DNA of 59,562 bases, filler included, from Dugesia japonica (Eukaryota): assembly GCA_001938525.1 (NCBI GenBank). It is 5 parts of 5 records of this genome, joined end to end, with 100 filler letters (N's around TTAATTAATTAA, not from the genome) between each part and the next. Parts side by side here need not be neighbours in the genome. Positions count along the whole stretch, not along the records: positions 30,174 to 41,933 come from MQRL01509563.1; 4 more parts are not named here. One strand, written 5' to 3'. The position numbers and the translations under genes are program-made. Shown here one piece after another: positions 19,664 to 59,093 of the stretch (position 1 is the stretch's first letter; each line of letters starts with the position of its first letter). The notes below the pieces were generated by a model. The model searched no databases. It saw only the letters and a list, made by a program, of their open reading frames with translations, and was not told the origin of the DNA.

Positions 19664-19962
19664 CTAAAAAAATATGTAATTGCTTTTCATAATTTTTGCT
19701 AAATTTTTAACCTTACTTTTTATGATTATTATTTTTTTAAAAACTACTAGTAAAATAATTAAAAAATACAATAAAATTAAATCAACATGTCAACCTTTAA
19801 CCCAAATTTCTAAGAGGTTTTCATATAAATTCAAAATTATAAAAATATAGGAATTTATTTTTATAAATGTATTATGGAAAAATAAATAATAGTAAAATAA
19901 TAACTTTCAGATATTTTAAAAGTTTACTTGTTTTCTATTTTTGGTGACATTTAATAATTTTT

Positions 19963-23200: not shown

Positions 23201-24687
23201 TTAATTATTTAAATTTTTATGATAAACCAGTCCTAAAAAACTAGTTAGTTGGATGGCCGCGACTGTAAACCACAATAAGTAACCGATTAATCCTTGGTAG
23301 AACATAGGAGTAAACACTGCTCTGAGACTGGATAATGATATGGACCATACTTCAACAGAATGATTAATTTCATCGCCAAAAATAGACGGTAAGAAAGTAT
23401 CACTAAAATTTGTAGATAAGTTGCTTGAGTTAACTTCAGAATTGTGAAATAATACACGGTTAGATCCTAACCAGCTTAAACCACTGAGAGATTTGTAGAG
23501 TAGTGTGACATTGAAACATAAAATAATGGGTGCAAAATACTGTAAGGCAACAAGACACAGGCAGTGAAAAATTCGAGCAACAATTTTTTGAAATTCAACA
23601 ATAGAAATTTTACCAGCTTCTTTTCTTAAAGCTTTAATTCGATTATCAGCTAGGTTTAAATAAGACTGTAAATGCATAGTGGACAGAAAAAATCTCAAAA
23701 TACAAAATGCTAAAGGTAAATAAATCTGCAATGCTAAAACATCATCGTATTTCAAAGTAGCAGTACCGAATTTAAGTGTAATTAAAAACTTTTGAACAGG
23801 GACTAACCAAAGACTTAAAATTGCTAAAGGAAATAGAAAAGAAAAATGTAGAACAAATAATTGGGCATTTGATTTAGAATCGTTAATTGCATCAATATAC
23901 ATTTTACCATATCGTAACCCAGAATGAGTGAAAATTCCACCAATAAATGCACTAAGCACTGCTAGCACACCTTTTATAGAAATCAAACTAATTGGACCAG
24001 AATTATCTGGGAAATTTTTAGTTATAGAATTTGTGAAATTTCTATAACCTTCTTCAATTTGAAAAGTCAAATGTTTTTCTGGTAAAATCAAAATCATCAT
24101 AGAAAAAACAAGAAATGAAAACGCAGACATTATAACAATCATTAAATCAGCAGTATCAGTCATAGTAAAATAAATCTTTGTTATATTAATCAAAGATTTT
24201 ATTGTGAAAGCGATTCCCAATATGCACCATAGAATACTTAAATTAACTTTAGCATTTGTACCTAATAAACACCCATAAACAAATTCATTTGAAAAAAAGA
24301 CTAAGGTAGAACAAAGCGAAAAGTCGATCAGCCATTGATAATCAGAGTAATAATGCAATTGAACTAAATCCTTAAATAGGACAGGAACTCGTCTCAAATC
24401 AATGGAAATTGATTTAGATATATTAACTGGAGCATTTTGATCTGAATAGTTTCGTTTATTTTTTCGATCTGAATATTTTAATTAATTTAACTAATTTAAG
24501 AATAAAATTTACTTTTATCTATCCTATTAATATTTGCAGCTTTCAGTATTTCATCTGCAGAAGGATAAACGTATCTAAATAAATTAAAGCAAAGAAGAAA
24601 TCTGGCAAATGACGTATAATTAATGACTTTAGACAAAATACTAGCACCCATTAGGGTAGAAACTAATTGAAACCCTAGAATCGCCAT
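23201..24687 (-). CDS. TMEM161: TMEM161 family membrane protein; exons 24513-24687 and 23201-24468 (480 aa)
   Basis: N-terminus MAILGFQLVSTL...SFARFLLC...RYVYPS, plus YQWLIDF, HLQSYLNLA...KEAGKI and ALQYFAP. Removing the GT..AG intron 24469-24512 (44 bp) joins the two ORFs in frame. Confidence 0.93.
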
Positions 24688-27559
24688 TAATTTTGAATAA
24701 ATAAATTCATTATAATTATTTAAACAAGAAATCTTTTTTAAGATTAATTTTTTACAAAAAACTAATTTCTTTAATTTCGATTGAAAGTTTTTATTATTTA
24801 ATCATAATCGGTTTTATTTATATTTGATAATTGATGAGTTGTCAAAAATAATTAGTTACTATTTGGAAAAATGATTGATTAAATTTTAATTATTAATTGA
24901 AAATGTATAAGGATTTGTCTTATTTTCTGAACATCAATCAAAAGCTNNNNNNNNNNNNNNNNNNNNNNNNNNNNNNNNNNNATACGGTTTAAACTTCAAA
25001 ACTTCACAACAATGAATTAGAGTTCAATCAAAATATATTTAATGCATAAAATTAGAATCCAGTGTGAAAATTTGCTCAATGAAACTTACTATAAATGCAA
25101 CCGATCTCAATCTGAAAATTGGTAAATACAAAATCAAATAGGGCATAAATATTAGAATATTATTAACCCATCAGTAACCGATCATATAATCAAAAGNNNN
25201 NNNNNNNNNNNNNNGTGCTAGCTTCTCTCAAAGCTTTTGTACTCGCCTTACTGTTTCTCAGAAAAAAATTGTTCTTGACACTTACATATAATTTCATAAA
25301 TACAAGTTTCTATAAATAAATGTTAATTAAAAATAAATTTACAATTTTAAATAATTCTTTTATAACCCCAATACAAGTGAGCCAGGAAAATGATTTTTAA
25401 AATAATTGGGAGATTAATACTAGAAAAAACCACTATATTATTAAAATATTTACGATTCAAAAATGTGTCATGGTACTACTTTAAAAAGTACTGTTTTATG
25501 CAATATGTTTTCACTGTCAGAACTAGAAAAATTTTTTTTCGATGTAATAACAAACCCCGACAGTTTAAAGACACTATGGTCTCAAAATTTAGGCTTTTTA
25601 AATTAATCAAATGATTATTTCAAATATAATACAAATGCAACACAGTTGTAAAGATTATGATACGACTGTTGAATATCTATGATGGAGCTTTCCTATTTCT
25701 TTTTATAAATCTTTTTCAATTTAGTATGGGATACGCATGGAACAACATGTAATAATCAAGTTTTCATAATCCTCCGCAAGAAAAATGGCAGTCATTTTGT
25801 ATATTGATTATTTTAGCTCATCGATTACTCAGTTTTAATTTTACCTTCTATAATTCAGTACTTTTTGGAGATACATTATCAATATTTAAATTTTTTAGAT
25901 GTATGCAAATTTAAAAGTAGCATTAGAATGAGAACAGTGTGTGAATACATGAATATGTAAATATAAAATAATGACGATAACCTTCAATAAAAACAATAAT
26001 AATTACTTTTAAAAATGTATAATAAGTAACAATAATACAGTCATATGACTTAACAATTATTAGTATAAACTTTGTTTAATTTTATTACCCTAGAGCGCCT
26101 AAGAATTTTGTATTTCAATAAAATTTTAAGGATAAGAAGCTACTTAATTACGCTCGTTTATATATTATTTTTGAGCTGGTAAATAGGNNNNNNNNNNNNN
26201 NNNNNNNNNNNNNNNNNNNNNNNNNNNNNNNNNNNNNNNCAAGTAAGATAAAAATTGTTGTTCTTCTATTTTATAAATTGTCCCATATTGCAGCTATCCC
26301 TTCTTATGGTATGAGACTCTATTGGTTTCTTATATCAAACTATATCAACATTTTATTGAAATTATATGAAAATAAATAATTTTGAAAAATTTCGACCAAT
26401 AAAATGAATAAAAATAATTATAAATATGCATTTAGTTATATTACCACAATATTTATTTAATTAGTTATTTTTGTTAATAGTGAATAAAATATGCTTCAAG
26501 TTAAAAGTTCTGATGTCAAAAATAAATTATCTCTGGAAGATTTACTAAACATGGCAACAGCGGTATATACCGATGCGATTACAGATAGATTATTTCCAAA
26601 TGTGTTCTATAGCGGAGATGGTATTGTAAAATTTATAAAGTTTTCTGAATTGTATTTGGATGCTTAAGGCATTGCACAGAAGAAATAACCTAAAAGATTA
26701 GTTTTTTGTTTGATAGTTGTCAATTTACTGGGAGAATATGTATAGACTTTGAAAAAGGTTAAAGGGTTTCTGGCTTGTTTATGTTTNGCAATTGAGAAAG
26801 ATAAAGATGTTGAAGATTTTTAAAATTTGATTAACCACAGGTATGAAAATAAAAAGATTGGAGTTAATTTTAAAAATATTAGAGATTTAGGAGAAACGTT
26901 ATTTTCAAATAAAAATTTTCAGAAGCATAAATGGATTAAAAATGAGGTGTCTAGCAGAAACGACAGAATATAGAAAAAATTCAAGAAACAATAATATTAG
27001 TTAATCAAATACAAAAAGAGATCAATTTGATACAGTTAGAAGTTACGCCAGAGTTACAAGTTGAAATAATTAGTTTGTCCAGATAAAAAACCAACAAAAC
27101 ATTTTCGTTGGTGAAAGGTGAACCATATTAGAAGGTTATGTCAAGAAGTGAGGTGAAAACGATATGGAAATGGGCCGACAAGTGCAACATCAATTTTAGA
27201 AATTTGTGACTGATAGAAGAACAAGAAACCAACCTAATCGAATACACGGGATTGCATATAAAGAAGTGAATACAAACAAATGATATTAGGAAGTATATGA
27301 AAGTAATTTCAAAACAAACTTGAAATTATTTACATTTAGTAAATGATGAATGACAATCGATAAAATTGTCAATTTGGTTGAGAAAAATTTTCTATTCACT
27401 TTCAATCCTTTAAAAACCATGATTCATTTGAAAAAATAAAAACTAAATATTATTAAGCCATTGTAACTAAACATTATTTTTAATTTGAATTCGAATTGTA
27501 AATAAAGGTTTTAAATCAACTAAATGAATATTTTACAAAAACCTTTCAAAGTAGTTTAA

Positions 27560-28507: not shown

Positions 28508-29190
28508 GTATATTTGAAAATATTTTCCCAATGAATTCAATTTCTGAATCACAAAGCGACGTAGAGTTTTTTTAATGGATCACAAATTATTTGATGTGAA
28601 CGACACTTTATTGTATATTAAAGTAAAGGTATTTGATAAATATGGAAAGGCAATGTCTGACACTCATGATGCGATTCTTAGTAACTATATGTAGCATACT
28701 TTTTTAGGATGTAATTCTTTTTTTGAAAGTGGAAATAGATTTTATATTCATAAAGCATTGATTAAAACTATAATAAATTATAATAGTGCATTAAACATAT
28801 CTGCCTCACAGCAATGGAATATGGACCAGAAGTAAAAAGAAAAAGATCTATTAAAATACCTGAAACATTGTCTATATGCAGTTCCTTTCGATTCAATTTC
28901 ATGGATCAGCCGAAATATCTTAATCCAGATATTACTTTTATCCAGATATTGCATTTCGAAATGGAGATCAATATAATGATAATTATAAAAGCTCTAGTTC
29001 AACAATTTATTGTAAGTAATATGGAATATTTGGATAAGAATCTAAATTGCGGAATAACACTTAGTGATTTTAAGAACAAATATCACTTCTTTGCATTTGC
29101 TTTAGCTCTAGACTTTGATATAAATCAGAATCAATTGCCTCAACAAAAGGATTTGAGATTGTATATAAAGTTTGCCAAATGTTTGTAAGT
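28508..29190 (+). pseudogene. Polinton major capsid protein remnant, family A, with internal deletions
   Basis: FPMNSISESQSDVEF..DVNDTLLYIKVKV, FMDQPKYL, FFAFALALD..LRLYIKFAK; clear DNA similarity to 30174-30743 and 41750-41933. Confidence 0.8.
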
Positions 29191-30073: not shown

Positions 30074-30173
30074 NNNNNNNNNNNNNNNNNNNNNNNNNNN
30101 NNNNNNNNNNNNNNNNNTTAATTAATTAANNNNNNNNNNNNNNNNNNNNNNNNNNNNNNNNNNNNNNNNNNNN
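30074..30173. other. Artificial contig spacer
   Basis: 44N-TTAATTAATTAA-44N. Confidence 0.95.
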
Positions 30174-30743
30174 TTCCAATGAATTCAATTTCTGAACCAA
30201 AAAGCGATGTAGAATTTTATATAAATGGATCTCAAACTGAATATTTGCATGTGAATGATACTTTCTTGTATATTAAACTGAAGGTAGGTGATAAGGCAGG
30301 CAAAGATTTGACTGACGCTCAATGATGCAGTTCCTAGTAACTATATGTTGCATACACTCTTTAAGGATGTAATTCTTTCATTTAATAATTACAANNNNNN
30401 NNNNNNNNNNNNNNNNNNNNNNNNNNNNNNNNNNNNNNNNNNNNNNNNNNNNNNNNNNNNNNNNNNTGGTGACAGTAAAAATATTTGTCTTACAGCAATG
30501 GGGTATGGATCGGACGATAATCGAAAAAATTCTATTAAAAAATCCAAAATTCTATTAAATTATCTAAAGCATTATCTTTATGTGGTTCATTGCAACTCGA
30601 TTTTATGGATCAACCGAAATATCTTATTCCTGGTGTCAATGTTCACATTCGATTGAAAAGAGCAACTTCTAACATTTGTTTGCAACCTGTAGTCCATGAA
30701 CCTAACTATGTATTGCCAGATGCAAAATTAATGGTTAGACGTG
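30174..30743 (+). pseudogene. Polinton major capsid gene, family A, 5' part (interrupted by the nested element)
   Basis: FPMNSISEPKSDVEFYINGSQTEYLHVNDTFLYIKLKV..SNYMLHTLFKDV..LDFMDQPKYLIPGVNVHIRLKR..DAKLMVRR, an F54H12.2-type Polinton MCP pattern; a few frameshifts. Confidence 0.85.
30738..30743. repeat. Left 6-bp target-site duplication GACGTG
   Basis: Identical hexamer at 41574-41579, immediately outside the other TIR. Confidence 0.95.
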
Positions 30744-31155
30744 AGTAGATGTAAAATAGCGCGATTAGGCCTGGACCCCCATAGCCATAAAATTTTGATA
30801 TTTTTTATGGCTGTCGATGCCGATTTGCAAACTGTGAAAAAGTGGTAAAAAAAAATAGTGAAAAGAGATAAAAATGATAAAAAATAACAAGATATTAAAA
30901 AGTTGAAAAAAGTTGAAAATATACCCAGGATTGTTTTTTACCCGTAATGATAAATAATGAAATTTTAAAATAAAAACTTGTTTATAAGCTAGGACCAAAT
31001 GTTTTTAGACAAAAATGCATGGACAAAAAATTATATTGAAATTTTAGTTTTGTTTGTAGCTTGTAGCTTGTAGCTTGTAGCTTGTAGCTTGTTGTTTGTT
31101 GTTTGTAGTTTGTAGTTTGTAGTTTGTAGTTTGTATTTTGTATTTGTATTTTGTA
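30744..31155 (+). repeat. Left terminal inverted repeat
   Basis: Reverse complement of ~41207-41573 with few differences; ends internally in (TGTAGCT/TGTAGTT)n 7-mers. Confidence 0.95.
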
Positions 31156-31178
31156 TAATAAAAATTAGTATGATTTAA

Positions 31179-33150
31179 TTAGTATCCAAATGGTAGAGTA
31201 GTTATTCCATCTTCTTTAATAAATCTTTTGTCATCAAATGAAGTTAATGCTTTTTTTAGTTGTTTAGTTTGTTTTACCTGATGAAGTTTAGAGTTGATTG
31301 AATAGTTTGTTCTGATATTATTGAATTGTTGTACAAAACATTTTTATATTGTTGTGCTGTAAAGTTGTTTGTATTACTTATTCCTTNNNNNNNNNNNNNN
31401 NNNNNNNNNNNNNNNNNNNNNNNNNNNNNNNNNNNNNNNNNNNNNNNNNNNNNNNNNNNNNNNNNNNNNNNNNNNNNNNNNNNNNNNNNNNNNNNNNNNN
31501 NNNNNNNNNNNNNNNNNNNNNNNNNNNNNNNNNNNNNNNNNTTCCAAGATTGATTTGGATGTATAAATTCAATCATTAGTGAATCTGTATCAGAGTAATG
31601 TATTCTCCATTGTTCTAAATTATTATCATTATCATTTGGAATTAATTTATTTAATTGATTATAAACAAAATCGTACATGATTAGTTTAGCATAATCTAGA
31701 ACAAAAAATCCAATGTATTGAAATTTATTGTACATGATCAAATGTTTAAATGTTTTTATTAGTGCTACTTCTTCATTAATTATAGTAGATGATTTATAAC
31801 CTGGTTTTGAAACTTGATTTAATATTTCCTTTTTAGTCTTTGCCAAGAATAAACTAATCCTATTTCTCACATTTTCAAGAGTCTTACCAAAGAATGCATT
31901 GTTTAATAGTTTGAAAAATGAATTTCCAAAGTCATCATTATTAACTTTTGCCTCATCTCTTGANNNNNNNNNNNNNNNNNNNNNNNNNNNNNNNNNNNNN
32001 NNNNNNNNNNNNNNNNNNNNNNNNNNNNNNNNNNNNNNNNNNNNNNNNNNNNNNAGATATAGATCCAAAACTTGTCCTAGAACTACATAATTATATTTAT
32101 TTTTCTGAGTCATTATTAACTTTTCATTGGTAGATTGTTTTTTATTCATGTATTTTAATAAATCTTTTTGATAATCACTCAAATCTTCATAACTGATTGA
32201 ATTTTTTTCTACAGCTAATGGATAATATTTAGTCTTTTCTTTAATATTGTCTGAATATATTAAATCAACTGTATAGATGTAATCCATATAAATCTTTTCT
32301 CCATCTTCATTAATTTTATAATCATCATTAGTTCTAACATAAGTTTTGTCATAATCCCAACTCATTTCACCCCAAGATAATCGTTTTGTCATCGATGCAG
32401 CATATAAACTATTCTCATCTAGGCATTTTAGTGTGGTAAATTCATTAGCTACTACATGTCTGTTTCCACATACTCCTGAAAATCCTCCTCTAATTCCTCG
32501 TTCTATAGTTAGAAACATGTCAAAGTTTTGAGGATTAGCATTTATTAATTTAACTTTTGATACTTTCATTCCTATTTCCCATGTAAGTCCTGGTGCAGAG
32601 TAACAATATGTTGGATCAATTTCATTCCAATCTAGTGATAAAGTCCTAAAGTTTTTGAAAAAGTCTGCTAGAATTATTACATCAAGTTTCATGTAATGTA
32701 GTGTATATTCCAAAAGATTGTTAAAATTTGAATAATCATTTAGAAATATTTGATAATCAGATTCAGATAGATTACTTTGTCTAAGTACATTGAAAAAATC
32801 TTCAATCTTTGGATTGTAGTTTATTAATTTTCTTTTAACTTTTGAATAATTATTTCCAGTTACATAATCATATGGATAGATTCCTTTTGATGCTTTTAGA
32901 TTAAAACTATCCAAATGAGGATGACTTTTACTTTTTGATAAATCTTGTCCCATCTTTTCAATTGAATGACCACTGCACATTCTTAATGAATCTAGAAATC
33001 TTAATCTTTTTAAAGAAAATGAAATGTAAACATCATCATTTAATGGAATTAGATTATTAATATCATTAGCATCTGATTTACACAATTCCTTAAAAACAAA
33101 ATGATTATCAAATTTTGAAGCATTATGAGCAGAAAATATCTATCAAAAAA
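31179..33150 (-). pseudogene. Protein-primed DNA polymerase B (exonuclease II through C-terminus), disrupted
   Basis: AHNASKFD (ExoII), RFLDS, KGIYPYDY, YMKLDV, CLDENSLY (A), KLLNNAFFGKT (B) and YSDTDSL (C). A frameshift near 31310 leads into ...LTSFDDKRF...TLPFGY* (stop at 31179). Confidence 0.93.
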
Positions 33151-33153
33151 TAT

Positions 33154-33678
33154 CTATCCATAAACTGGTATGAAATGCTTCTTTGGAGATTCAAATTTCT
33201 TGATACATTCAAGATGAGCATATCCTCTACTAGCTCCTGTCCATGGATTTACTGATAAATAATCACATTGTGGTTTATTTAAATCAAAGTTCCTAGTTTT
33301 GGAAAATTTATAAATAAAATAAATACATAATATTCCACAAATTTTAGTTTTCCAAGGTTGAACTTGTCTCCTATTCCATTTTACTCCTCCTCTTGACATG
33401 ATTGATTTTAATGGAGGTAGTCCATAGGAATCAAAATAATAACTTGTACCTTTGACAGGTTTAATATATGCAACCCAATGACTATCTTTTTGATTTGAAT
33501 TTTGATAGTTGATTATCCAGTTTACAATTGACTGGGTTGTCCAGTTAACTGAAAACTCATTGTTCATTACCACATAAACATTTAAATTTAAAAATTTAGC
33601 AATATCTAATAAATCATAATTAGTTGTAGATGATATGCCAAATGTTTTGAGAAAGTCGAGTACGTTGTAATTATCCAT
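33154..33678 (-). CDS. Adenain-type cysteine protease with a pPolB-derived C-terminal extension
   Basis: HWVAY, YYFDSYGLPP and Q...CGILC catalytic motifs intact; tail PWTGASRGYAHLEC...FIPVY resembles the pPolB segment preceding ExoII. Confidence 0.88.
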   Translation of the reverse strand: MDNYNVLDFLKTFGISSTTNYDLLDIAKFLNLNVYVVMNNEFSVNWTTQSIVNWIINYQNSNQKDSHWVAYIKPVKGTSYYFDSYGLPPLKSIMSRGGVKWNRRQVQPWKTKICGILCIYFIYKFSKTRNFDLNKPQCDYLSVNPWTGASRGYAHLECIKKFESPKKHFIPVYG

Positions 33679-33699
33679 TCCATTTTTATTCAAATCAAT

Positions 33700-34385
33700 T
33701 TAATTGAACCTTCTCAAATGCAATAAGATATTAATCTTTTCTCCATCAAAATCTATTGTATTAAAATTCTCATCTACTATATTTAATTTTATTCTAGAAA
33801 TAAAATCTGTATTAATNTNTGAATAANNTGGATTAGCTGGTCTATCAGTTATCCTATATCCATAAGGAACTGTTCCCATTGGCAAACTATGTAATAAATT
33901 GTATTCTTTATTATTTATATAATTACCTTGTACAATGTTGCAAATAATATTAATTTTATTATCTGAAATGAATTTATCCAACTTGGTCAGTAGATAGCCA
34001 ATAGGTAAAACATTAAATCCAAGAATAGTATGAAAAAAGAAGTATTTTCAAATTCAAGCTTAACTCGTTCAATTGGTTTATCTTTATCATTAATATATAA
34101 TTGGATTAAAGCTTTACCTGTTGATACATCAAAACTTAATNNNNNNNNNNNNNNNNNNNNNNNNNNNNNNNNNNNNNNNNNNNNNNNNNNATAAGCACCA
34201 GGAGTTATTATTTTTTCTATACCATCTAGTTTATATTTATTATTTTTATTATTTATATTCAAAACCATGTTGGATGTAGTGAACCATATTAAAGCTATTT
34301 CCCATCTCCCTTCTAATTTTAAACCTATTGATAATTTAGTTTCTAATTCATGTTCTTGACCAAATATTAAAAATTGATGAGACAT
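33700..34385 (-). CDS. Minor capsid protein (penton), split by a 1-nt frameshift
   Basis: WEIAL...ITPGAY and IICNIV...VPYGYRI..P...IVDENFNTIDF...LLHLRR. One extra T in the homopolymer at 34033-34038 gives SFFHTILGF and joins the two ORFs, matching SFFHKILGF in the homolog at 57.3 kb. Confidence 0.85.
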
Positions 34386-34386
34386 T

Positions 34387-34482
34387 AAACCGAGCGAACG
34401 TAGTGAGTGAGGTTTCTATAAAGCAATTTATTATAGATTTTATTTGAAAGTAGATGAAAAAGCACTCGCTGCGCTCGCGCTT
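34387..34482. other. Two GNA-triloop / tandem-GA hairpins in an intergenic spacer
   Basis: AAACC-GA-GC-GA-AC-GTA-GT-GA-GT-GA-GGTTT on + (34387-34415) and AAGCGC-GA-GC-GCA-GC-GA-GTGCTT on - (34460-34482). Confidence 0.65.
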
Positions 34483-35314
34483 ATTTTAAGTATTTATTTT
34501 TTAACCTAGAATACTTTTCTTTAGTTATTAATTTATCATCCAACAGTTGTTTAATTATTTTATTAAAATCAGTTGAAAGATTATCATGTCCAGCTTTTAT
34601 TGCATTAGTTATTATTAAAAACTTTTCCAACAACTTTATTGGGTTAATACCATCTCCTTTCTTTACAATTTCTTTATATTTGGGTGAATTTTTAAATTTT
34701 TTAAATTCTTGATCAAATATTCCATCTTTTTTACATGTACGGATGTAATTACTTGAATGTGGGGTGAAATTACTAAATAATTTTAAATAAATTTTTTTAG
34801 CTTCACTATTATTAGATCCATAAACAAACATTAAATTTAATACTTCTTGATTAAAAGGTATTTCTTTAACTAATCCAGATTGGTTATCAAATGCAAAATA
34901 TTTTAACTTTTCACCATTTACAATTTTTTCTTTTAAATAAATAATATCTTTACCAATTTTAAAACAATCAAAATTTTCTTCATCATTTTCAATAATATAA
35001 GGAATTAAACTAGGAGGTAAATCATATTTACTACAAACTTTAAAATCTTCTTTTTTCAATTTTATTCTACCATCTGAGATGAGATTATTAACTAGACTTT
35101 TAATAAGATCATCTTTATCTTCATCATTAAGATTATTAATAGAATCTTCTTTGATAGGTTCTTTGATAGGTTCTTTGATAGGTTCTTTGATAGATTCTTT
35201 AGCTGAAAATTGGTTAGTAAAAGAAACTTGTTCAATTATTAATTTATCATATTTCTCTCTTGCTTTAATTTGATCTTTTAAAATTTTTATTCTATCTCCA
35301 ATCCAATCACTCAT
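34481..35314 (-). CDS. Conserved Polinton hypothetical protein (277 aa, EPIK repeats)
   Basis: Intact ORF; C-terminal GDGINP..LLEKF..I..AIKAGH motif typical of a Polinton accessory gene; syntenic homolog at 57641-58499. Confidence 0.75.
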   Translation of the reverse strand: MSDWIGDRIKILKDQIKAREKYDKLIIEQVSFTNQFSAKESIKEPIKEPIKEPIKEDSINNLNDEDKDDLIKSLVNNLISDGRIKLKKEDFKVCSKYDLPPSLIPYIIENDEENFDCFKIGKDIIYLKEKIVNGEKLKYFAFDNQSGLVKEIPFNQEVLNLMFVYGSNNSEAKKIYLKLFSNFTPHSSNYIRTCKKDGIFDQEFKKFKNSPKYKEIVKKGDGINPIKLLEKFLIITNAIKAGHDNLSTDFNKIIKQLLDDKLITKEKYSRLKNKYLK

Positions 35315-35320
35315 TTTTAT

Positions 35321-35914
35321 TTAAGCTTTATTTGAGTTGTAGGGATCATGATATGGATTCAAATATAATCCTTTACCACTAGGTATAATTTCTATTCCCT
35401 TTTTAAATTTCTTTTTATTTATTACTTTCAATCTACTTAACTGATCACTTAGTTCTCCCTTTAAATATTTATGAATAGCAGATCCTTGATAAGGATTTAA
35501 ATAAATTCCATGTCCACTTTGAGGAGGTTTATTATCAATTCCATTATCAATTCCATTATCACCTTGCTGTAACCGCTTTAATTGTTTAGTTAATAATTCA
35601 TTCTTTTTATCAATTCCAATAGATTCTTTAGCTTTATTATTAGCTTCACGTGAATTGGATACAACCTTTGCAATGCTAGCAGCTGCGCCACCTGCAGCTC
35701 CAATTCCTGCCAAAATACCAGGTATTAAAGCTAATAATGGAAATATACCACCAGAGTGGACACCATCATGTTCATATTCAGAGAGCTTTTGTTTTAATAT
35801 TTCTTTAGTCTTTTTTCCTATCCAATAGTTTTTGCCATTTATTTTTATTGATTTACTTTTATCACTATTTATTAAATCTATTAATTCTTTTTCAGTTGTG
35901 TTGCTGTTAGTCAT
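35321..35914 (-). CDS. PZ-like / adenovirus pX-like core or membrane-active precursor
   Basis: GG|IFPLLALIPGILAGIGAAGGAAASIAKVV amphipathic segment and repeated GxG(I/L)YLNPY motifs; homolog at 58511-59002. Confidence 0.8.
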   Translation of the reverse strand: MTNSNTTEKELIDLINSDKSKSIKINGKNYWIGKKTKEILKQKLSEYEHDGVHSGGIFPLLALIPGILAGIGAAGGAAASIAKVVSNSREANNKAKESIGIDKKNELLTKQLKRLQQGDNGIDNGIDNKPPQSGHGIYLNPYQGSAIHKYLKGELSDQLSRLKVINKKKFKKGIEIIPSGKGLYLNPYHDPYNSNKA

Positions 35915-35939
35915 TTATTTATTAATATAATAATTGGGT

Positions 35940-36710
35940 TTAAAACAAGGAATCTACCAACATTTCCTTTTCCTTGTCTAGATAAAAATAATTATATTTT
36001 GTTTTCCAATGATGATTAGTTTCAAAGTCATATTCTTCTTTACTATTAAAAATGTTGCTAAATAAATCATGATAAACATTATCTTTATCTCTTTTACCTA
36101 GTTTAAAGAAGATGAAACAATTACTATTATTTCTTATAGAATTCTTATCCAAATCATAATAAGTTTGAGATATATAAATTACATTACAATTATTATGTCT
36201 TCCTCTAGTAAAATAAGATTTCTGTATTGATTGATTCTTCTCATTTACTACATCATCAAAAATAATTAAATTCTTTTTATTAGCAGGTAACTTATCACAT
36301 GGAACAATTTCAGATGCTTTAGAAGATAGAGTAATGTTTATAGATTCTCGATTAACAGATTCCAAACTACCCAGTTGAGATGAATACCAAAAGATTATTT
36401 CTTGAGGATTTAAATCTTTGGGAATTCTATCTTGTATTTCATCTGAAAAAATATTAATCAATTCTTGTTTACTCAAACCTTGAGTTAGACCATGATATAA
36501 TAATTGAATTTCAAATTGGTTAATAGTAGTTGAAAAGATGATTAAATTATTATAATCTATAAAACCTGGTGTTAGTAAAATCTTTAGTAGTAAAACATTT
36601 TTCCCACATCCTGATGATCCAATAATTAAACATCTAAACTGTGGAGGAAATATTTCATGTTTAAATTTACTTGCTGAATTTTTCCAAATAGGTGTTACTC
36701 TAGTTGCCAT
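35940..36710 (-). CDS. A32-like (FtsK/HerA) genome-packaging ATPase
   Basis: Walker A GSSGCGKN, Walker B LIIFDD, RGRH, ISQ and IRNN motifs; probable start is the MATR ATG at 36710, with an upstream ATG at 36740. Confidence 0.93.
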   Translation of the reverse strand: MATRVTPIWKNSASKFKHEIFPPQFRCLIIGSSGCGKNVLLLKILLTPGFIDYNNLIIFSTTINQFEIQLLYHGLTQGLSKQELINIFSDEIQDRIPKDLNPQEIIFWYSSQLGSLESVNRESINITLSSKASEIVPCDKLPANKKNLIIFDDVVNEKNQSIQKSYFTRGRHNNCNVIYISQTYYDLDKNSIRNNSNCFIFFKLGKRDKDNVYHDLFSNIFNSKEEYDFETNHHWKTKYNYFYLDKEKEMLVDSLF

Positions 36711-36745
36711 TTTATTATAGATTAATTTTCCAGCTAACATAAAAA

Positions 36746-36940
36746 TTATTTCGTGATTAAATTCATCAACAACATGTTTGTCATCATAGTCTGATTTGCA
36801 ACCATCATGTCACGATTAAATGATTCTTCCTCTTCTTTACTCATGTAAGTAGAAGTATCAGTAGTTAACCATTTCCATAATCCATCTGGTTTAGTTTTGG
36901 GTTTATCTTTATCAACTGGTTTATCTTGTGTATTTCCCAT
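36746..36940 (-). CDS. Small hypothetical protein (64 aa, MGNTQ start)
   Basis: Fills the gap between the integrase and ATPase genes, co-oriented, with an A-rich start context. Confidence 0.6.
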   Translation of the reverse strand: MGNTQDKPVDKDKPKTKPDGLWKWLTTDTSTYMSKEEEESFNRDMMVANQTMMTNMLLMNLITK

Positions 36941-36972
36941 TATTATTATTTTATTAATTTAAAATTTAAAAT

Positions 36973-38408
36973 TTATAAATTAGTCAACTGGAGCTCATTG
37001 GCATAAAATCTACCTAATATTTTATCTCCATCTTTATTCAAAATACCATAAGTTAATACTCCATCCCATGGTTGTGATGTATTATTTTCTCTATAGATTT
37101 TATAAATTGTATAAATATCTCTTGTCCAATTTATTGTATATCCTTTTTCAAACTTGTCTTTAAATCTAAAAATTCTAACTCTTTGCCCAATCTTTAGTTT
37201 CTTACTAGTTGGATTCTTAAAGTCTTTATTTTTAAGATTCCATTTGACTGTTTTATCTTGTAATCCATATGGACTGTGGCTAGCTTCTTTTGGTGTTTTA
37301 TTAATTGAACTATGAACTGTATTATTATAATCATCAACTATAGAATTTAATAAATCAATATCCCATTTTTGATTATCTTGTTTAGTAAAAATTTTGTATA
37401 ATCTTCTTTTAAATGTTCTAATTACTCGCTCTACAAAAACTGCTTTACCCCTAAGTTCTGTATTTAATGGAGTAGAATATAAATTAATATTATTATCTTC
37501 ACAAAACTCTTGAAAAACTTTATTATAAAATTCTCTTCCATGATCTACNNNNNNNNNNNNNNNNNNNNNNNNNNNNNNNNNNNNNNNNNNNNNNNNNNNN
37601 NNNNNNNNNNNNNNNNNNNNNNNNNNNNNNNNNNNNNNNNNNNNNNNNNNNNNNNNNNNNNNNNNNNNNNNNNNNNNNNNNNNNNNNNNNNNNNNNNNNN
37701 NNNNNNNNNNNNNNNNNNNNNNNNNNNNCCTTTAGGTGAACCTAAAAACATTAAATCAGCTGACCAAGTTTCATCTTTAAAGAATAATTTAACTTTTAGA
37801 AAGTTTTTATTTTTATTAAAAGGTTTATGTAACTCGTTAGCCTGTAATTCATCCTCTACAGTTAACTGGATACCACTTCCCATCATTATATTTCCCTTCA
37901 TTGCTAATTTAACTAATCCTCTTTGAATCTTTTCTGAAGTAGAAGGATTTTCTATATTATTTAAATCATGAATTAAATTAACATCAGCTATATGTCTATC
38001 TCTAACATCTTCTGAATTATAACTAATATCATGTTTTAAAGCAGCTTCATCTACCCTATTTACTGGTTCTTCACCTGGTTTTGGAACAAAGTTCTCATCC
38101 AGTCGAATATCCAATCTAGTTCCTGGCCCAGTATAATTATGTTTGAATAAATGTCTTTCACCAGGATATTTTTCTGTAGTAAAAGGTTTTAATAAAGCAC
38201 TTGTTACTTTGGAAGATTGAAGATCTCCTCCTTGAATCGATTGATCTCCTCCTTGAATCGATTGATGAATCGATTGAACAACAACTTGTTTTTTAAAATC
38301 TGTTGGCTCAACACCATACTTTTTTGAACATAGTTTATTATGTCTTACTCTATGTTTCTTTGATAAATATCTATTACATATTAAACACAATTCTTTTTCA
38401 TCAGGCAT
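36973..38408 (-). CDS. Zn-finger / parvovirus-type PLA2 / retroviral-like (rve) integrase polyprotein; spans a 180-N gap
   Basis: CLIC..H...C; NYTGPGT...VNRVDEAALKHDISY; ELHKP...WSADL (D). After the gap: VDHGREF (D), VERVIRTFK (E), YNNTVHSSI, FEKGYTINWT, GRFYANELQLTNL* (stop at 36973). Confidence 0.92.
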
Positions 38409-38433
38409 TTTATTAAATAAATTTTTTACTCAA

Positions 38434-39711
38434 CTAGGATCTAATCATTCTAACATCCTCACCTTTAATATTTTCTACATACATTACTTTACCATTTGAT
38501 ATTTTCAATTCAACATGTTTCTCTTGAAGTATTAACCAATACAAATTACCACTTAATTCAGAATCTTTAGTTATATGACATGTTAAATCTACATTATTTA
38601 CAGTTAATTTTTCATCTTGTGCTGAACAATCAAAACAGAATATCGGATAAAAACTCATCCAATCTTTAATACTTAATTGAGGTTTTGTATTAAAAGCATT
38701 ACACATTTCTAAATACATTTGATATGGAAACATTACTTGATTATTACCTACATCAAATTCCACTCTACTATTTGGGTAATAAACATTATTTAATTGTAAT
38801 TGAATACTTTTTATATAATAATTAAATGTTTTATCTTCTTCTGCCCCAGCTACTTTTACTTTCTTAACAACACTTCGTTTTAATGAAAATAAATTATTAT
38901 TATTCTTATATGAATTAATTAAATGTTTAAATCCAACAATTACAAATCTAGGTCTATATGGTAAATTACCCATTTTAATTGAAAAACTAGTTCCTGTATT
39001 CATTGAACAATTTCCCATCTCTCTTTCCAAGAATGAAGCTTGAATAGGTTTACCTGTTGATAATCTTTCTAAATAACTCAATTCAGATTTTGGTGATAAA
39101 GTCCATTCAGGTATATGTAATTCCAAAGCATCAATTTGAATTTCAACTTTATCATCTGTACTTCCATAAAAAATCTTTTCATTCATTATTTCCCTATTAC
39201 AATCTAATTGAATAAAAGTATTAAATAATATTCTATTATAGTTTTGTAAAAACCCAAACAGATTTCTTAAAGGATAATAACCTTCATAACTATTTAAATA
39301 TAATTCTTGTCTCTTGATTGAACTATCTTTAATAAAATCTGGAATCCATCCATATGCTTGATGAGATTTTTCATTAGCTTTATCTATCAAAACTAAGTTA
39401 ATCATTGTAGAGGCTACATCTGGATAAGTTAATGATTCAATATAAGTCGATCCTATTTTTAATCTCATCTGTGAAAATAAAGCTGGAAAGAAATCATTTT
39501 CCAATGTAGTAGTTGGTTTTATATTTTTAAAACTAATTCTAAAATACATTTTGCTATTTCCTAAATCTAAAGGATTAGTATTTTGTAATGATTGAAATGA
39601 AATATCCCCATTCTGGTTTAAATTTACTATTGATCCAGCTGTAGGAGATATTTTCAACAAATCACATTTTGTTTGATTGTGAATAAAGTTTACATTAAAA
39701 TCTAGATCCAT
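38434..39711 (-). CDS. Double jelly-roll major capsid protein, family B
   Basis: Intact 425-aa ORF with LFSQMRLKIG..IE, PLRNLFGF..Y.RI, PRFVIVGF, LNNVYYP and PIFCFDCS.Q, the Polinton PY/MCP pattern. Confidence 0.88.
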   Translation of the reverse strand: MDLDFNVNFIHNQTKCDLLKISPTAGSIVNLNQNGDISFQSLQNTNPLDLGNSKMYFRISFKNIKPTTTLENDFFPALFSQMRLKIGSTYIESLTYPDVASTMINLVLIDKANEKSHQAYGWIPDFIKDSSIKRQELYLNSYEGYYPLRNLFGFLQNYNRILFNTFIQLDCNREIMNEKIFYGSTDDKVEIQIDALELHIPEWTLSPKSELSYLERLSTGKPIQASFLEREMGNCSMNTGTSFSIKMGNLPYRPRFVIVGFKHLINSYKNNNNLFSLKRSVVKKVKVAGAEEDKTFNYYIKSIQLQLNNVYYPNSRVEFDVGNNQVMFPYQMYLEMCNAFNTKPQLSIKDWMSFYPIFCFDCSAQDEKLTVNNVDLTCHITKDSELSGNLYWLILQEKHVELKISNGKVMYVENIKGEDVRMIRS

Positions 39712-39744
39712 TTTCTTTAATCACCATTTGATCTAGCTAATAAA

Positions 39745-39999
39745 TTACTTTTCATTATTGTAAAAAGTTTTATTTATCCATTCTTTTATTAATACTCTAT
39801 AATTGTAAAGTATAATACAAATTACAACTATTATTAAAAAAATAATAATCATTTTATAAAATTTTACTTCAGCTTTTAAATTAACAACCATTAATTGATA
39901 TTTAGATTTATTATCTTGTTCATTTTTTAATAATTTTTCCATCCCCACACTTAAATCACTCAATATACTTGAATCACTTGTTATTTCCTTATTCTCCAT
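39745..39999 (-). CDS. Small coiled-coil plus single-transmembrane protein
   Basis: Hydrophobic run MIIIFLIIVVICIILY; co-oriented and tightly packed within the element. Confidence 0.65.
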   Translation of the reverse strand: MENKEITSDSSILSDLSVGMEKLLKNEQDNKSKYQLMVVNLKAEVKFYKMIIIFLIIVVICIILYNYRVLIKEWINKTFYNNEK

Positions 40000-40015
40000 T
40001 TCTTTTACTTATTTT

Positions 40016-40288
40016 TTAAGAAAGACTATTAAAAAACTTTTCATCATTTTTTAAACTTTTTTCTAAATGATTTTTAGTCTGTTCTTTCATTTTATTAATC
40101 TTTCTATTATAATGTTTAGTTTTATTTATTTCTTTAAGTCTATATACTTCTCGCAAATTTTTTATTTCTTCTTCAGAATTATAATATACATTTTTCTTTT
40201 TAACCTCCCTCTCATATGCTTCTTTATAACTACGAAAACTAATGTATAAATCACAAAAAGATTTTTTTATTTCTTCTTCACCTTCCAT
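40016..40288 (-). CDS. Small charged hypothetical protein (90 aa)
   Basis: ATG-initiated, co-oriented and tightly packed; K/E-rich. Confidence 0.6.
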   Translation of the reverse strand: MEGEEEIKKSFCDLYISFRSYKEAYEREVKKKNVYYNSEEEIKNLREVYRLKEINKTKHYNRKINKMKEQTKNHLEKSLKNDEKFFNSLS

Positions 40289-40382
40289 TTATTTCAATTG
40301 TTCTTCCAAATCATTAAACACTTTATTAATAAATGTTTTATCTTTTAAAATTGTTTCCATTTCCTAAAGAAACTTTTTAGAA

Positions 40383-41060
40383 TTATTTAAAATCAGAATT
40401 TAATTCTAATTGACTTTTACATCTACTTATATACCTATTATAAAATTTAGCTTCTCTTTCCCCATCATTATTATTATTAAAAACATATTCATGATTATTT
40501 TCATCTTCATTATTATTAACAAGAATTTCAGGTTTTGCTGCTCCACCTTTTATATCTTCCATATTTTTTCCAACAGATTTAAATAATCCTTTAAAGTTTT
40601 CAGGTCTAAGTTTAGGATAATTCTGTCTATCATTTAAACAATTTATTAGCTTCATTTTCATTTTATCACTATTTTCTTCAATCTTTTCTCTTTCTGTTTT
40701 CTTTTGTTTAATAGGTTTATATTCTANNNNNNNNNNNNNNNNNNNNNNNNNNNNNNNNNNNNNNNNNNNNNNNNNNNNNNNNNNNNNNNNNNNNNNNNNN
40801 NNNNNNNNNNNNNNTTTTTTCTTTTTAGCTTCAGGGATTAAATCCATTTTTCTTAATACAACATTCATTTCTCTTGTACTAACTCCAATCTTTTGGGATA
40901 ACTCACTTGGCTTTAAAGATAAATTTTTATCAATTATTTCCAAATATTTAGTTAATATAATTTTTTCTTTAATATTTAAATTACCACCATCTTTATTTAT
41001 ATCTATTTTATATTCAACCTCCATTTTATATAGAAAAAATTTAAGCTTTTGGTTTTCCAT
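40383..41060 (-). CDS. Putative helix-turn-helix DNA-binding protein (first gene of the element)
   Basis: LSLKPSELSQKIGVSTREMNVVLRKM fits an HTH pattern and is followed by a basic stretch; contains an N gap. Confidence 0.6.
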   Translation of the reverse strand: MENQKLKFFLYKMEVEYKIDINKDGGNLNIKEKIILTKYLEIIDKNLSLKPSELSQKIGVSTREMNVVLRKMDLIPEAKKKKXXXXXXXXXXXXXXXXXXXXXXXXXXXXXXEYKPIKQKKTEREKIEENSDKMKMKLINCLNDRQNYPKLRPENFKGLFKSVGKNMEDIKGGAAKPEILVNNNEDENNHEYVFNNNNDGEREAKFYNRYISRCKSQLELNSDFK

Positions 41061-41080
41061 TTTTTTTTACCCATATTCCA

Positions 41081-41170
41081 GCGACAAGTGACGACAAGTG
41101 GCGACAAGTAGCGACAGGTGGCGACAGGTGGCGACAAGTGACGACAAGTGACGAAAATTAGCGACAGCTG
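41081..41170. repeat. Nine tandem 10-bp units RCGACARGTG, candidate regulatory array
   Basis: gcgacaagtg/acgacaagtg/gcgacaggtg units located 20 bp upstream of the first ATG (41060), on this end only. Confidence 0.9.
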
Positions 41171-41206
41171 GCTAAACTAAGAAAACTAAGGAAAAAGTAA
41201 AAAAAA

Positions 41207-41573
41207 CTACAAAATACAAAATACAAACTACAAACTACAAGCTACAAGCTACAAGCTACAAGCTACAAGCTAAAACAAAACTAAAATTTCAATATAATTT
41301 TTTGTCCATGCATTTTTGTCTAAAAACATTTGGTCCTAGCTTATAAACAAGTTTTTATTTTAAAATTTCATTATTTATCATTACGGGTAAAAAACAATCC
41401 TGGGTATATTTTCAACTTTTTAATATCTTGTTATTTTTTATCATTTTTATCTCTTTTCACTATTTTTTTTACCACTTTTTCACAGTTTGCAAATCGGCAT
41501 CGACAACCATAAAAAATATCAAAATTTTATGGCTATGGGGGTCTAGGCCTAATCGCGCTATTTTACATCTACT
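41207..41573 (-). repeat. Right terminal inverted repeat
   Basis: Reverse complement of the left TIR; ends ...TTTTACATCTACT. Confidence 0.95.
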
Positions 41574-41933
41574 GACGTGTACGCGTTGAACCTTCAGTAT
41601 TTGCTGGTCATCAATTAGGATTAAATAAGAAAAATGCAATTTATCCAATAAGAAAGAAGGAAATTGTTGCGTTTGCAATTAGTAAAGATAGTACATCATT
41701 TTATAAGGAGCAAATATTTGGCGATCGTCGTTTACCCAACTTTCTTTTAATTGGATTTCAAAATGGAGATCAATATAATGGTAGTTATAAAGCATCAACT
41801 TCAACATTTAAACATTTAAATGCTACTTCCATATCTTTATCGAAAAACATTGATTATCAAGAGACATATATTCAAGATTTTCAAAACGACGATTATAGTA
41901 CAACATATATGCAAAGTGTTGTTCGAAATATGG
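41574..41933 (+). pseudogene. Polinton major capsid gene, family A, 3' continuation after the nested element (begins with the TSD)
   Basis: RVRVEPSVFAGHQLGLNKKNAIYPIRKKEIVAFAI...QIFGDRRLPNFLLIGFQNGDQYNGSY, in frame with DAKLMVR on the left flank. Confidence 0.9.
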
Positions 41934-42033
41934 NNNNNNNNNNNNNNNNNNNNNNNNNNNNNNNNNNNNNNNNNNNNTTAATTAATTAANNNNNNNNNNN
42001 NNNNNNNNNNNNNNNNNNNNNNNNNNNNNNNNN
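41934..42033. other. Artificial contig spacer
   Basis: 44N-TTAATTAATTAA-44N. Confidence 0.95.
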
Positions 42034-52806: not shown

Positions 52807-53418
52807 CTAGAACAAATCATCTAACATTTCATCTGTCTCTTTGTTTACATAAAAATAATTATACTTTGTTTTCCAATGAAGATTTACCTCATAATCATAT
52901 TCTGTTTTGTTAGTGAAAATATTTGAAAATAATTCATGATACACATTGTCTCTATCTGTTTTATTTAGTTTAAAGAAAGTGTAACAATTTAAATTATTCC
53001 TTACAGAATTTTTATCGAGATGATAATATGTTTGGGAAATATAAATTACATTACAGTTTGAATGTCTTCCAAGTATGAAATACCTTTTTTGAATCTCTTG
53101 ATTTTTCTCATTAACAACATCATCAAATATTATTAAGTTTATTGGAACTATATTTTGATTTTCAAACATTAAAATAATTTCTTGTTTAGTTAACCCATTT
53201 TCAAAACCAATGTAAAGTAATTGAAGTTCAAATTGATTGATTGTTGTTGAATAAAAAATTAAAACATCATAACCTAAAAATTCTGGAGTTAATAACATTT
53301 TCATTAATAAAAAATTTTTCCCACAACCTGATGAACCTGTCATTAAAAGTCTAAAATTATTCGGCAATACTTTAATATTAAAAGTTGTTAAATTTTTATT
53401 CCAGATATACGAAGCCAT
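52807..53418 (-). CDS. Packaging ATPase with internal deletion
   Basis: GSSGCGKN, LIIFDDVVNEKNQ and LGRH; lacks ~50 aa relative to 35940-36710. Confidence 0.85.
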   Translation of the reverse strand: MASYIWNKNLTTFNIKVLPNNFRLLMTGSSGCGKNFLLMKMLLTPEFLGYDVLIFYSTTINQFELQLLYIGFENGLTKQEIILMFENQNIVPINLIIFDDVVNEKNQEIQKRYFILGRHSNCNVIYISQTYYHLDKNSVRNNLNCYTFFKLNKTDRDNVYHELFSNIFTNKTEYDYEVNLHWKTKYNYFYVNKETDEMLDDLF

Positions 53419-53554
53419 TTTTTATATGTTAAATTTTAGGCCATGCATGGCCCACTTTTTATTTTACACTTTAGATTTTTCACTTTAGATTTCGGGCCAC
53501 GCCTGGCCCACTTTTCACTTTAGATTTTAGCATGGCCCACTTTTCACCGTTGGT

Positions 53555-54154
53555 TTACATTCCGAGTTTTGATTTCATTGCATTAATAACCTTTGTCTGA
53601 TTTTCAACTATAATTTTTAAACTTTCACTATTTTTCTTGTCCTTTTCTTTTTTATTACTAGATATCAACTCATGAACTTCATTTACCATATTTTTACTTG
53701 TCATCAATTCATCATCAGTTAAAATTTCATCATTGACGGCTTTCTGACGAAATAGAAATAATTTATTTTTAACAGCATCAAGTTTCTTAATTAACTTTTC
53801 ATATCTTTCCTTTTTAGATTTTATTAAAGATGAATTTAATGTTCCAATATCAGGCAACATGGAACTTGTGCCTGTCAATATCGGTATACCAATTGCTGAC
53901 AACAGTATTCCAACTGGTGCAATTAAAATTATACCTCCAATTCCAATTCCAACACTAACAATTATTTGTGTATATTTTATTGATGAGTCTATTCTTTCCC
54001 ATCTTCTATGTATTTTCTTATAATGTTTTATTTTATCTTTTATCAAGTAAAGGCCATTCTCAAAATCTTTTATTCTAGATAATACAAGTTTATTTTTTAA
54101 ATCTAAAATCGTATATTCTTCGTGTAAACTAGGATATAACTTTTCACTCTCCAT
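53555..54154 (-). CDS. Polinton membrane protein with a glycine-rich hydrophobic hairpin
   Basis: LYPSL N-terminus, helical region, IIVSVGIGIGGIILIAPVGILLSAIGIPIL and C-terminal AVND.ILT.DE; resembles a recurrent Polinton ORF (probably the one termed GasderminX in adintovirus annotations). Confidence 0.65.
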   Translation of the reverse strand: MESEKLYPSLHEEYTILDLKNKLVLSRIKDFENGLYLIKDKIKHYKKIHRRWERIDSSIKYTQIIVSVGIGIGGIILIAPVGILLSAIGIPILTGTSSMLPDIGTLNSSLIKSKKERYEKLIKKLDAVKNKLFLFRQKAVNDEILTDDELMTSKNMVNEVHELISSNKKEKDKKNSESLKIIVENQTKVINAMKSKLGM

Positions 54155-54156
54155 TT

Positions 54157-56531: not shown

Positions 56532-56551
56532 CAGTTTCTTAATAAACTAAT

Positions 56552-56959
56552 TTACCCAAGAGTGTCATATAAATTTTTCATTTCAGATATTATTTCATCA
56601 AACTTTTTTCAATTATTTATTGAATATAAAAAATAAATACACAAGATACCACAAATTTTTAAATCAAAATGTTGAACTTGAATTTTATTTTATTTCCTGG
56701 TAAATTTTTCAATTTGTTCAAAAGGTTTTAAACAAAAAGAGTCAAAATACTGCCCATTTGTGTAACATGTCCAATATGTTCCTTTTTGATTTGTATTTTG
56801 ATAATTAAAAATGTAATTTATTTCCTTTAATTTTTTAGGTATTTCATTTTTCATATAAATCTCTAACTGTATTTGTAAAAAGTCAGCAATAGCATATAAA
56901 TCAAAATTTGTTGTTGTGTTAATTCCAAATGTTCTCAAGAAATCAATTAAATTATACAT
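56552..56959 (-). pseudogene. Adenain-type protease pseudogene
   Basis: Homologous to 33154-33678; catalytic His replaced (GTYWT), two in-frame stops, then QVQ..KICGILCIYFLY. Confidence 0.85.
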
Positions 56960-56966
56960 CTGTTTC

Positions 56967-57632
56967 TTAAAGTCGATATTTACGTAAATGAACTAAAATT
57001 GAAATCATTTCTTGGTTAAAATCTATTGTGTTAAAGTTTTCATCTACAATGTTAAATCTTAAACTGTCAATGTTTTTTGTATAAATTTTAGAATAAATCG
57101 TAACAGATGGTCTTTCGATTATTTTAAATCCAAAAGGTACCGTATTAATTGGAAATGAATATAAAAGATTAATTTGTTCCGTGTTATTTTTTGCAGATTT
57201 AACATAATTACTTTTAACAATATTGCAAGTTATATTTATCATGTTAATATGTGAAATGTCAATTTTATTATCTGANTAATAATTTCCTGGTGGATAAGCA
57301 TTTACTTTAAAACCCAAGATTTTATGAAAGAAAGATTTATCATCAAAGGTTAATAAGTTTTTTGTTTTCATGTTACATTTTGTTGTTGAAGTGTCAGCTG
57401 AAATTTCTATTCCATATTTTTCTAATCTTGATTATATTTCTTTTATTTCATAAGCTCCAGGTTCGATTTTATCATTGTTGAATTTATTATTAAAATTTGT
57501 GATGTTAAAAATAATATTGTAACATGTAAAACAAATTAATCCAAGTTCATATTCTGAATCTAATTCTATAGGAAATTTTAAATCTAATTTTAAATCTTGT
57601 TCATGACCAACTACTAAAAATTGATGTGACAT
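56967..57632 (-). pseudogene. Minor capsid protein (penton), interrupted
   Basis: MSHQFL...IEPGAYEI and ITCNIV...VPFGFKIIERP...IVDENFNTIDF..LVHLRK; homologous to 33700-34385. Confidence 0.85.
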
Positions 57633-57640
57633 GCTATTTC

Positions 57641-58499: not shown

Positions 58500-58510
58500 T
58501 TGCTATTTCT

Positions 58511-59002: not shown

Positions 59003-59093
59003 AATGCTTTACTATTTTCTATAATAAAAATATACATTCTAATTTTTTATTTATCAAGTCTAATCTTAAATGCCAATCTTCATATGTTTCACA

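Follow-up and report, generated by a model that had tools for sequence, protein, structure and literature searches.

An element in Dugesia japonica appears to encode an integrase in one frame with a zinc finger and a PLA2 domain, and glycine motifs separate the parts. This raises the question of whether the frame is the gene of a genuine precursor or an accident of one copy, and, if it is genuine, whether the precursor is cut by the element's own protease. The window, i.e. the whole stretch of DNA analysed here, has a length of 59,562 nucleotides including filler. Its main features are collected in Table 1, in which an arrow within a motif marks the proposed cut.

Table 1. The element, its genes and the parts of the fusion gene (positions along the window).
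Feature	Positions	Strand	Remarks
Polinton/Maverick element	30744..41573		10,830 bp; TIRs of ~390 bp, 95% identity; perfect 6-bp target-site duplication; decayed copy
Double jelly-roll capsid gene	38434..39720	minus	PF21738, E 2.4e-21
Leader-PLA2-integrase fusion gene	36973..38408	minus	N run within
N-terminal beta-beta-alpha zinc finger (C8, C11, H23, C27), optional leader	38316..38396	minus	model pLDDT 83-92
Site 1, duplicated IQGG↓D in disordered linker	38222..38266	minus	21-bp tandem repeat; pLDDT <50, residues 40-60
Parvovirus-VP1-type PLA2: GPG loop, His-Asp dyad, distal Asp	37881..38225	minus	PF08398, E 8.3e-10, above cut-off
Site 2, MMGS↓G, end of last PLA2 helix	37872..37886	minus	
Integrase start: short helix, ELHKP, first catalytic Asp at 37757	37729..37871	minus	
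180-N run	37549..37728		length probably not literal
Integrase second half: second Asp, catalytic Glu, C-terminal domain, no chromodomain	36973..37548	minus	
A32-type packaging ATPase	35940..36809	minus	PF04665, E 5.9e-9
Small core-like protein	35321..35914	minus	glycine sites HSGG↓IF, QSGH↓GIYL, PSGK↓GLYL
Adenain-like cysteine protease, proposed cutter	33154..33699	minus	PF00770, E 2.2e-4, 21.4 bits vs cut-off 21.3
Protein-primed family B polymerase	31274..33139	minus	N-terminal part missing; ESM Atlas look-alikes PF03175, score 0.95-0.96

The Polinton/Maverick features found in the element are a family B polymerase (truncated), an rve-type DDE integrase, capsid, ATPase and protease genes, TIRs, and a target-site duplication, the length of which lies within the 5-8-bp range used as a Polinton criterion. 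The flanks are animal-like, with a TMEM161 gene and transposon remnants. The capsid gene is followed by the fusion gene and then by the ATPase gene, and the protease and the truncated polymerase lie beyond. Alignment of the protease identified its His, Asp, Gln and Cys motifs, and the polymerase gave no match in Pfam, PDB or phage searches. The region 33700-34415, which we take to be the minor capsid gene, is coding in two frames and has no Pfam match. With a polymerase devoid of its N-terminal part and a presumed minor capsid gene split over two frames, the copy is a decayed one. The 3' end of the protease gene seems to be joined to the polymerase remnant, and at 33139-33250 the end of the protease frame presumably resembles a polymerase motif. 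Together with a polymerase that has no N-terminus, this resemblance marks an internal deletion in this copy. The three glycine sites of the small core-like protein, which we assume to be pX-like, are found again in another element within the window; their P4 residue is His, Gln or Pro, never M/I/L.

The fusion frame begins with the ATG at 38408 (minus strand) and runs for 226 residues up to the N run, free of stops and Ns and with the first catalytic Asp included. The first-pass annotation had described a single open frame leading from a zinc finger through two IQGGD motifs, a PLA2 domain and MMGSG into an integrase, gapless to the first Asp, and all these motifs were located: C8-x2-C11..H23-x3-C27 (38387-38328), IQGGD (38258-38244 and 38237-38223), YTGPG (38135-38121) and HDISY (38033-38019) of the PLA2, MMGSG (37886-37872), and ELHKP (37835-37821) and WSADL (37766-37752), all on the minus strand. 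The duplication of the IQGGD site was confirmed as a perfect tandem repeat of 2.1 copies. The PLA2 assignment also held, with the Parvo_coat_N profile matched by the window itself and rve by its relatives. No Pfam family matched the zinc finger of the window; the fingers of relatives are C2H2 and weakly U1/matrin-like, with zf-U1 below cut-off in three proteins (E 5e-4 to 8e-4). The integrase begins 13 residues downstream of site 2. Since the doubled IQGGD is one copied site, the frame contains two independent canonical adenain motifs, and a count of three independent sites was rejected. When the residues of the 226-aa piece were shuffled (20,000 trials), at least two such motifs arose in 2.3% and at least three in 0.13% of the trials.

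Beyond the N run, 191 residues share 35-48% identity with the second half of 16 fused relatives, and both sides of the run match the same full-length relatives collinearly. The catalytic D, D and E of the integrase are all visible in the window. Searched alone, the second half of the integrase had no Pfam match; its relatives match rve (PF00665) and fold like foamy-virus integrase. Taken literally, the N run would place the flanking parts in different frames and the first two Asp residues 70.7 codons apart, compared to 58-64 in 16/16 relatives. The length of the run is thus most likely an estimate; a frameshift reading was rejected. The many N runs of the window and further breaks in the element could be taken to mean that the whole fusion is an artefact of assembly or gene calling, or a decay product of this copy. 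Such an origin is extremely improbable, because the stretch from ATG to first catalytic Asp contains neither N nor stop and the same junction recurs in more than 100 database relatives; this refutes it for the PLA2-integrase junction and leaves it for the N run only.

A search for longer relatives yielded 29 proteins: 15 with precomputed PLA2 and rve matches, one recognised by our own profile, and 13 Lottia gene models. A profile of the 15 fused proteins gave 1,865 matches. Among the best 120 of these, in a ranking that favours fusions, 106 matched both domain profiles; of the remaining 14, judged by eye, 12 have their start within the last PLA2 helix. The fusion is thus not the rarity that it had been thought to be. 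In a library clustered at 50% identity, 3,332 clusters were found at E<=1e-30 and the best 150 were examined. Both domains were present in 29 of these 150 and no PLA2 was detected by profile in 121, which include five with a divergent or cut-off PLA2 by eye and three with a protease. This implies that most Polinton integrases work without a PLA2, and on the sequences compared the fusion appears as a minority state among them. Three ESM Atlas clusters with both domains (184, 111 and 72 members) scored 0.82-0.85; since these scores are under 0.9, the clusters are treated as a lead only. The two domains already occur together in automatically assigned database names. Within the fused family, the hosts identified are Lottia and Oculina, from gene models. 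A scan of bacterial and archaeal genomes for relatives gave 14 pattern matches, none of which was confirmed.

The distribution of the fusion was followed on a FastTree phylogeny of 189 integrase cores (unrooted, no bootstrap; rows with <200 profile positions and solo rows without the integrase start were left out). The window falls within a clade of 56 rows, support 100, which consists entirely of fused proteins with identities down to ~40%. Over the whole tree, the fused label changes 14 times, at least eight of these changes being forced by strong branches, compared to 62 changes for shuffled labels. Clade and label changes together indicate that the fusion is old and stably kept in one lineage, and that elsewhere it has recurred or been lost. 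It characterises a family and is not peculiar to this decayed copy. At the C-terminus, 7/77 PLA2-fused and 79/100 solo integrases have a tail as long as a chromodomain; the window copy has no such tail. Two relatives, P0130 and P0157, have an insert of ~250 residues between PLA2 and integrase, which in P0130 is without GG or GxG.

We then compared the glycine motifs in 130 fused proteins, reduced to 82 at <70% identity after exclusion of 13 Lottia gene models that are apparently spliced at the junction. In 74/82 proteins, or in 62/82 with a stricter first-match anchor, the stretch from PLA2 to integrase contains GG or GxG; as the 82 proteins are related, these counts are not independent. The integrase cores of the same proteins, 20,644 residues in all, contain the motif six times; because the cores are folded, they provide only a lenient comparison for a linker. 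Chance GxG motifs also occur in catalytic motifs such as the ATPase P-loop and the GPG loop of the PLA2. On the other side of the PLA2, 44 of the 56 proteins with a leader have GG or GxG just before D-[IL]-Q, six have G-A/S/N, and six have no site. Of the other proteins, 12 are leaderless and start within four residues of the Asp of D-[IL]-Q, i.e. at the predicted cut, and 14 were not scorable. Fused integrases begin 11 residues past the last glycine site, and solo integrases start at median position 16. The leader itself varies: a zinc finger of the window type was found in 10 of the 56, a CxxC..CxxC ribbon in five and other types in 41. A fixed zinc finger-PLA2-integrase architecture was consequently rejected, and the zinc finger is an optional leader, not a fixed component of a polyprotein.

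The description of the sites as canonical for adenain fits IQGG↓D and MMGS↓G in this copy but not the family. M/I/L occupies P4 in 13/82 proteins at site 2, where Lys is found in 40/74, and in 7/41 at site 1, where P4 is mostly Lys or Tyr. In view of this rarity, the canonical form is a local coincidence. The expected conservation of the linkers therefore applies to the GG or GxG on both sides of the PLA2 but does not extend to the adenain P4. The homologous site alternates between GG and GxG (YFGG-D and YFGSG-D), an alternation that corresponds to the dual rule of the adenain-like protease clan. The predicted site rule of the family is GG↓X or GX↓G as in the mavirus protease, with no fixed P4. 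Tandem repetition of site 1 was also seen in the relatives P0003, P0008, P0038 and P0092, with up to five KGG in P0008.

Stand-alone PLA2s were sought among 72 shorter PLA2 relatives. The 26 Lottia models in this set were excluded because they are apparently spliced at the junction; several run on into the first integrase residues. Among the other 46, 18 continue into an integrase, 13 stop past the last helix without one, and the remaining 15 either finish before that point or gave no anchor. Of the 13, five stop within six residues of the first Gly, and these include P0282, P0283 and P0284, the closest relatives of the window PLA2 (66-72% identity). Some ends of stand-alone PLA2s may be contig ends. 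The predicted product end is where two stand-alone PLA2s, P0282 (LGG) and P0283 (IGQ), and the C-terminal PLA2 of P0276 (LGI) terminate.

Such close relatives raise the alternative of a tolerated gene fusion, in which the stop between adjacent genes is lost and regained, the glycines come from the PLA2 gene, and the integrase functions with a passenger or starts from an internal Met. This alternative fits the Met residues right before site 2 in the window and the repeated changes of the fused state over the integrase tree (at least 8 to 14). It is nevertheless improbable, because the 56-row clade is fused throughout in spite of its low identities, a glycine site nearly always sets off the leader, and catalytic residues are kept in both enzymes (the PLA2 Gly, His, Asp and Asp in 74/82 fused relatives). 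Such close relatives with a PLA2 on its own count against the first-pass interpretation.

Structure models were computed for the 226-aa piece of the window (mean pLDDT 80.7) and for the full-length relative P0001 (mean pLDDT 89.0). In the window model, the finger folds at residues 5-31, residues 40-60 with both IQGG motifs are disordered, and the last PLA2 helix (157-176) is followed by Gly177-Ser-Gly179. In the P0001 model, residues 29-45 with site 1 are disordered, and the PLA2 helix ends at residue 151, followed by Gly152-Ala-Gly154 in a block of pLDDT 63. The integrase part of P0001 matches foamy-virus intasome chains (E 1e-15). A fold search with the window model gave no matches at E<=0.001; its best matches were secretory PLA2s, which were not significant, and there were weak matches to small zinc fingers. 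According to the models, site 1 is open and cutting of site 2 would require fraying of the helix end. The first Gly of site 2 may be the helix cap, with P4-P3 in the last turn of the PLA2 helix. In both models the sites hence lie in or at the edge of flexible stretches, site 2 at a helix end.

This position of site 2 is relevant to a second alternative, namely that the fusion serves packaging, that only site 1 is cut, and that the PLA2 stays on the integrase, K-L-G-x-G being a helix end and hinge. Site 2 directly adjoins the helix and shows less disorder, with pLDDT 63-73 compared to <50 at site 1, its P5 and P3 are hydrophobic helix positions next to a P4 that is mostly Lys, and 9/13 integrase-less PLA2s retain the motif (in P0282, GG is the very end, so that no partner remains to be cut off). 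Still, the second Gly, present with the first in 74/82 fusions, is absent from three of the five short-ended stand-alone PLA2s, and the same motif joins unrelated partners with no PLA2 helix before it. An adenain-like protease precedes integrase and chromodomain in P0144, P0167 and P0201, the linkers being LIGGGLVGSG, KSGAG and QEGKG; in P0276, the order is reversed to integrase, chromodomain, KKQKGDG and PLA2. We therefore regard cutting at site 1 only as unlikely, if a more serious contender than a tolerated fusion. The protease-integrase fusions sit in two places on the integrase tree. The P0144 protease was identified through P0167 and P0201 (E 1e-14 to 2e-10), and a direct BLASTP of the window protease against P0144 was not significant (E 0.18). 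Some of the protease-integrase or reverse-order fusions could be decay products.

The reading that we favour, as probable on the sequence comparisons, is a virion-packaged precursor with the layout leader (where present), GG↓, PLA2, Gx↓G, integrase, cut at both sites by the element's own protease. In one Polinton lineage, the integrase would be made at the C-terminal end of a precursor of the virion core. The leader, which is a zinc finger in the window and either a basic peptide or a DUF5679 zinc ribbon in relatives, some of which have none, would together with the PLA2 bring the protein into the assembling particle. The adenain-like protease would cut after P2-Gly sites (GG↓X or GX↓G, whatever the P4); cutting would free the lipase for membrane passage, and the freed integrase would arrive together with the genome. 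We infer the cutting and its exact bonds, the packaging, the activity of the lipase and its role in entry, and the role of the leader. The window copy, decayed as it is, probably no longer does this on its own. As to processing as such, the first-pass annotation was probably right. A precursor of this kind would explain how integrase is supplied to an incoming element ahead of gene expression, as mavirus appears to do, and would mean that a lineage of DNA viruses has converged on the polyprotein logic of retroviruses. By linking a predicted virion lipase to the integrase, it makes both the formation of infectious particles by animal Polintons and the substrates of their protease testable in vitro with short natural peptides.

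In retroviral Pol, the integrase is the C-terminal part of a precursor and is packaged and then freed by the viral protease. The precursor logic is the same here, and the protease-integrase fusions come closest to it, but the family has no Gag, reverse transcriptase or aspartic protease. Retroviral membership was rejected, as Pfam scans gave only PLA2, rve, zinc-binding and chromo domains. Beyond the single lineage, integrases may have been tethered repeatedly and independently, via a glycine site, to an adjoining core enzyme (a PLA2 before or behind, or the maturation protease) and released by the protease in a retrovirus-like manner, a plausible generalisation that we put forward tentatively. 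If it is true, the conserved sites represent the substrate rule of the Polinton protease, and they provide evidence, at the sequence level, for the maturation of real virions by animal Polintons and for direct integration at entry.

This precursor architecture is real and conserved, occurs in a known element class and is apparently undescribed. That the PLA2-like gene is usually a separate ORF, as stated in the annotation, agrees with the available text of Starrett et al. (2021; PMC8502044), in which adintovirus PLA2X is a gene of its own with a C-terminal pX-like domain. The two share a parvovirus-VP1-type PLA2 in an animal Polinton and a proposed membrane action at entry, but the integrase here takes the place of the pX-like domain. 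The string 'cleav' occurs 0 times in the main text of that paper. According to the accessible portions of Born et al. (2018; PMC6048507), the mavirus protease MVP cuts GG↓X and GX↓G in vitro, and mavirus virions contain the integrase, the protease and a predicted hydrolase that is split, its gap containing GK↓G. The mavirus integrase MV02 and hydrolase MV13 resemble the present case in combining an rve integrase with a predicted lipase-fold protein, both of which are present in mavirus virions. In contrast to the fusion, they are encoded by separate genes, the hydrolase is of the alpha/beta type and not a PLA2, and integrase processing is not reported in those portions.

Adenovirus protease sites, as far as covered by the consulted part of PMC4246237, have M/I/L at P4, relaxed in places to Gln/Asn. 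Shared features are the dual rule (Gly at P2 and at P1 or P1') and precursors cut within the particle; adenoviruses have no integrase, and Lys (site 2) or Lys/Tyr (site 1) prevails at P4 in the family described here. Adintoviruses are defined in the available sections of PMC11071296 by an integrase with C-terminal chromodomain, a polymerase with an OTU N-terminus, and a hexon recognisable by BLASTP against references. The standard Polinton/adintovirus integrase shares the rve DDE core and the ELHKP start but is stand-alone and carries the chromodomain, whereas the window frame stops where the core profile does. Packaging of Polinton lipases was proposed earlier (PMC4642659, accessible part), and no Polinton virion had been observed according to the available text of 10.64898/2026.06.19.733378. 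The open-access text searched yielded no account of an integrase fused to either a PLA2 or a protease, nor of sites or substrates of the Polinton protease. No such fusion is described in the accessible portions of PMC5803895, PMC3671162, PMC11161782, PMC12220804, PMC11131425, 10.64898/2026.07.28.741253, 10.1101/2023.08.22.554363 and 10.64898/2026.10.13.758929, nor in the supplement text of PMC8502044, where maps are largely pictures.

Several further observations were made in the window. A 277-aa ORF at 34481-35320 without Pfam match carries a single KKGD↓G site along with an in-frame repeat of 12 bp, and is possibly another core precursor. Short in-frame repeats are common in the element, and 7-bp tandem arrays (31052-31155 and 41204-41276) lie at the inner ends of both inverted repeats. 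The element is hosted by an older decayed gene (30100-30743 and 41574-42030), reading of which continues across the target duplication from the left to the right flank. This gene has no Pfam match and is presumably capsid-like; a related remnant lies at 28528-29188. A second decayed Polinton of the same family (52807-59561) has an ATPase 77-78% identical in DNA, together with remnants of core-like protein, protease and polymerase. Neither PLA2 nor integrase was found for it within the window, and tblastn of the whole window with 16 fused proteins detected no second copy of the fusion gene. This second element includes a 489-aa ORF (54157-55879) of ~555-bp tandem units with 78% identity and no Pfam match. 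A 985-codon ORF at 16749-19706 also lacks a Pfam match. Transposase remnants at 10585-15928, with a BED finger match (E 1.2e-3), are apart from that match assumed by us to be hAT-like and mariner-like. The host TMEM161 gene at 23201-24801 is nearly intronless (Pfam E 2.9e-104).
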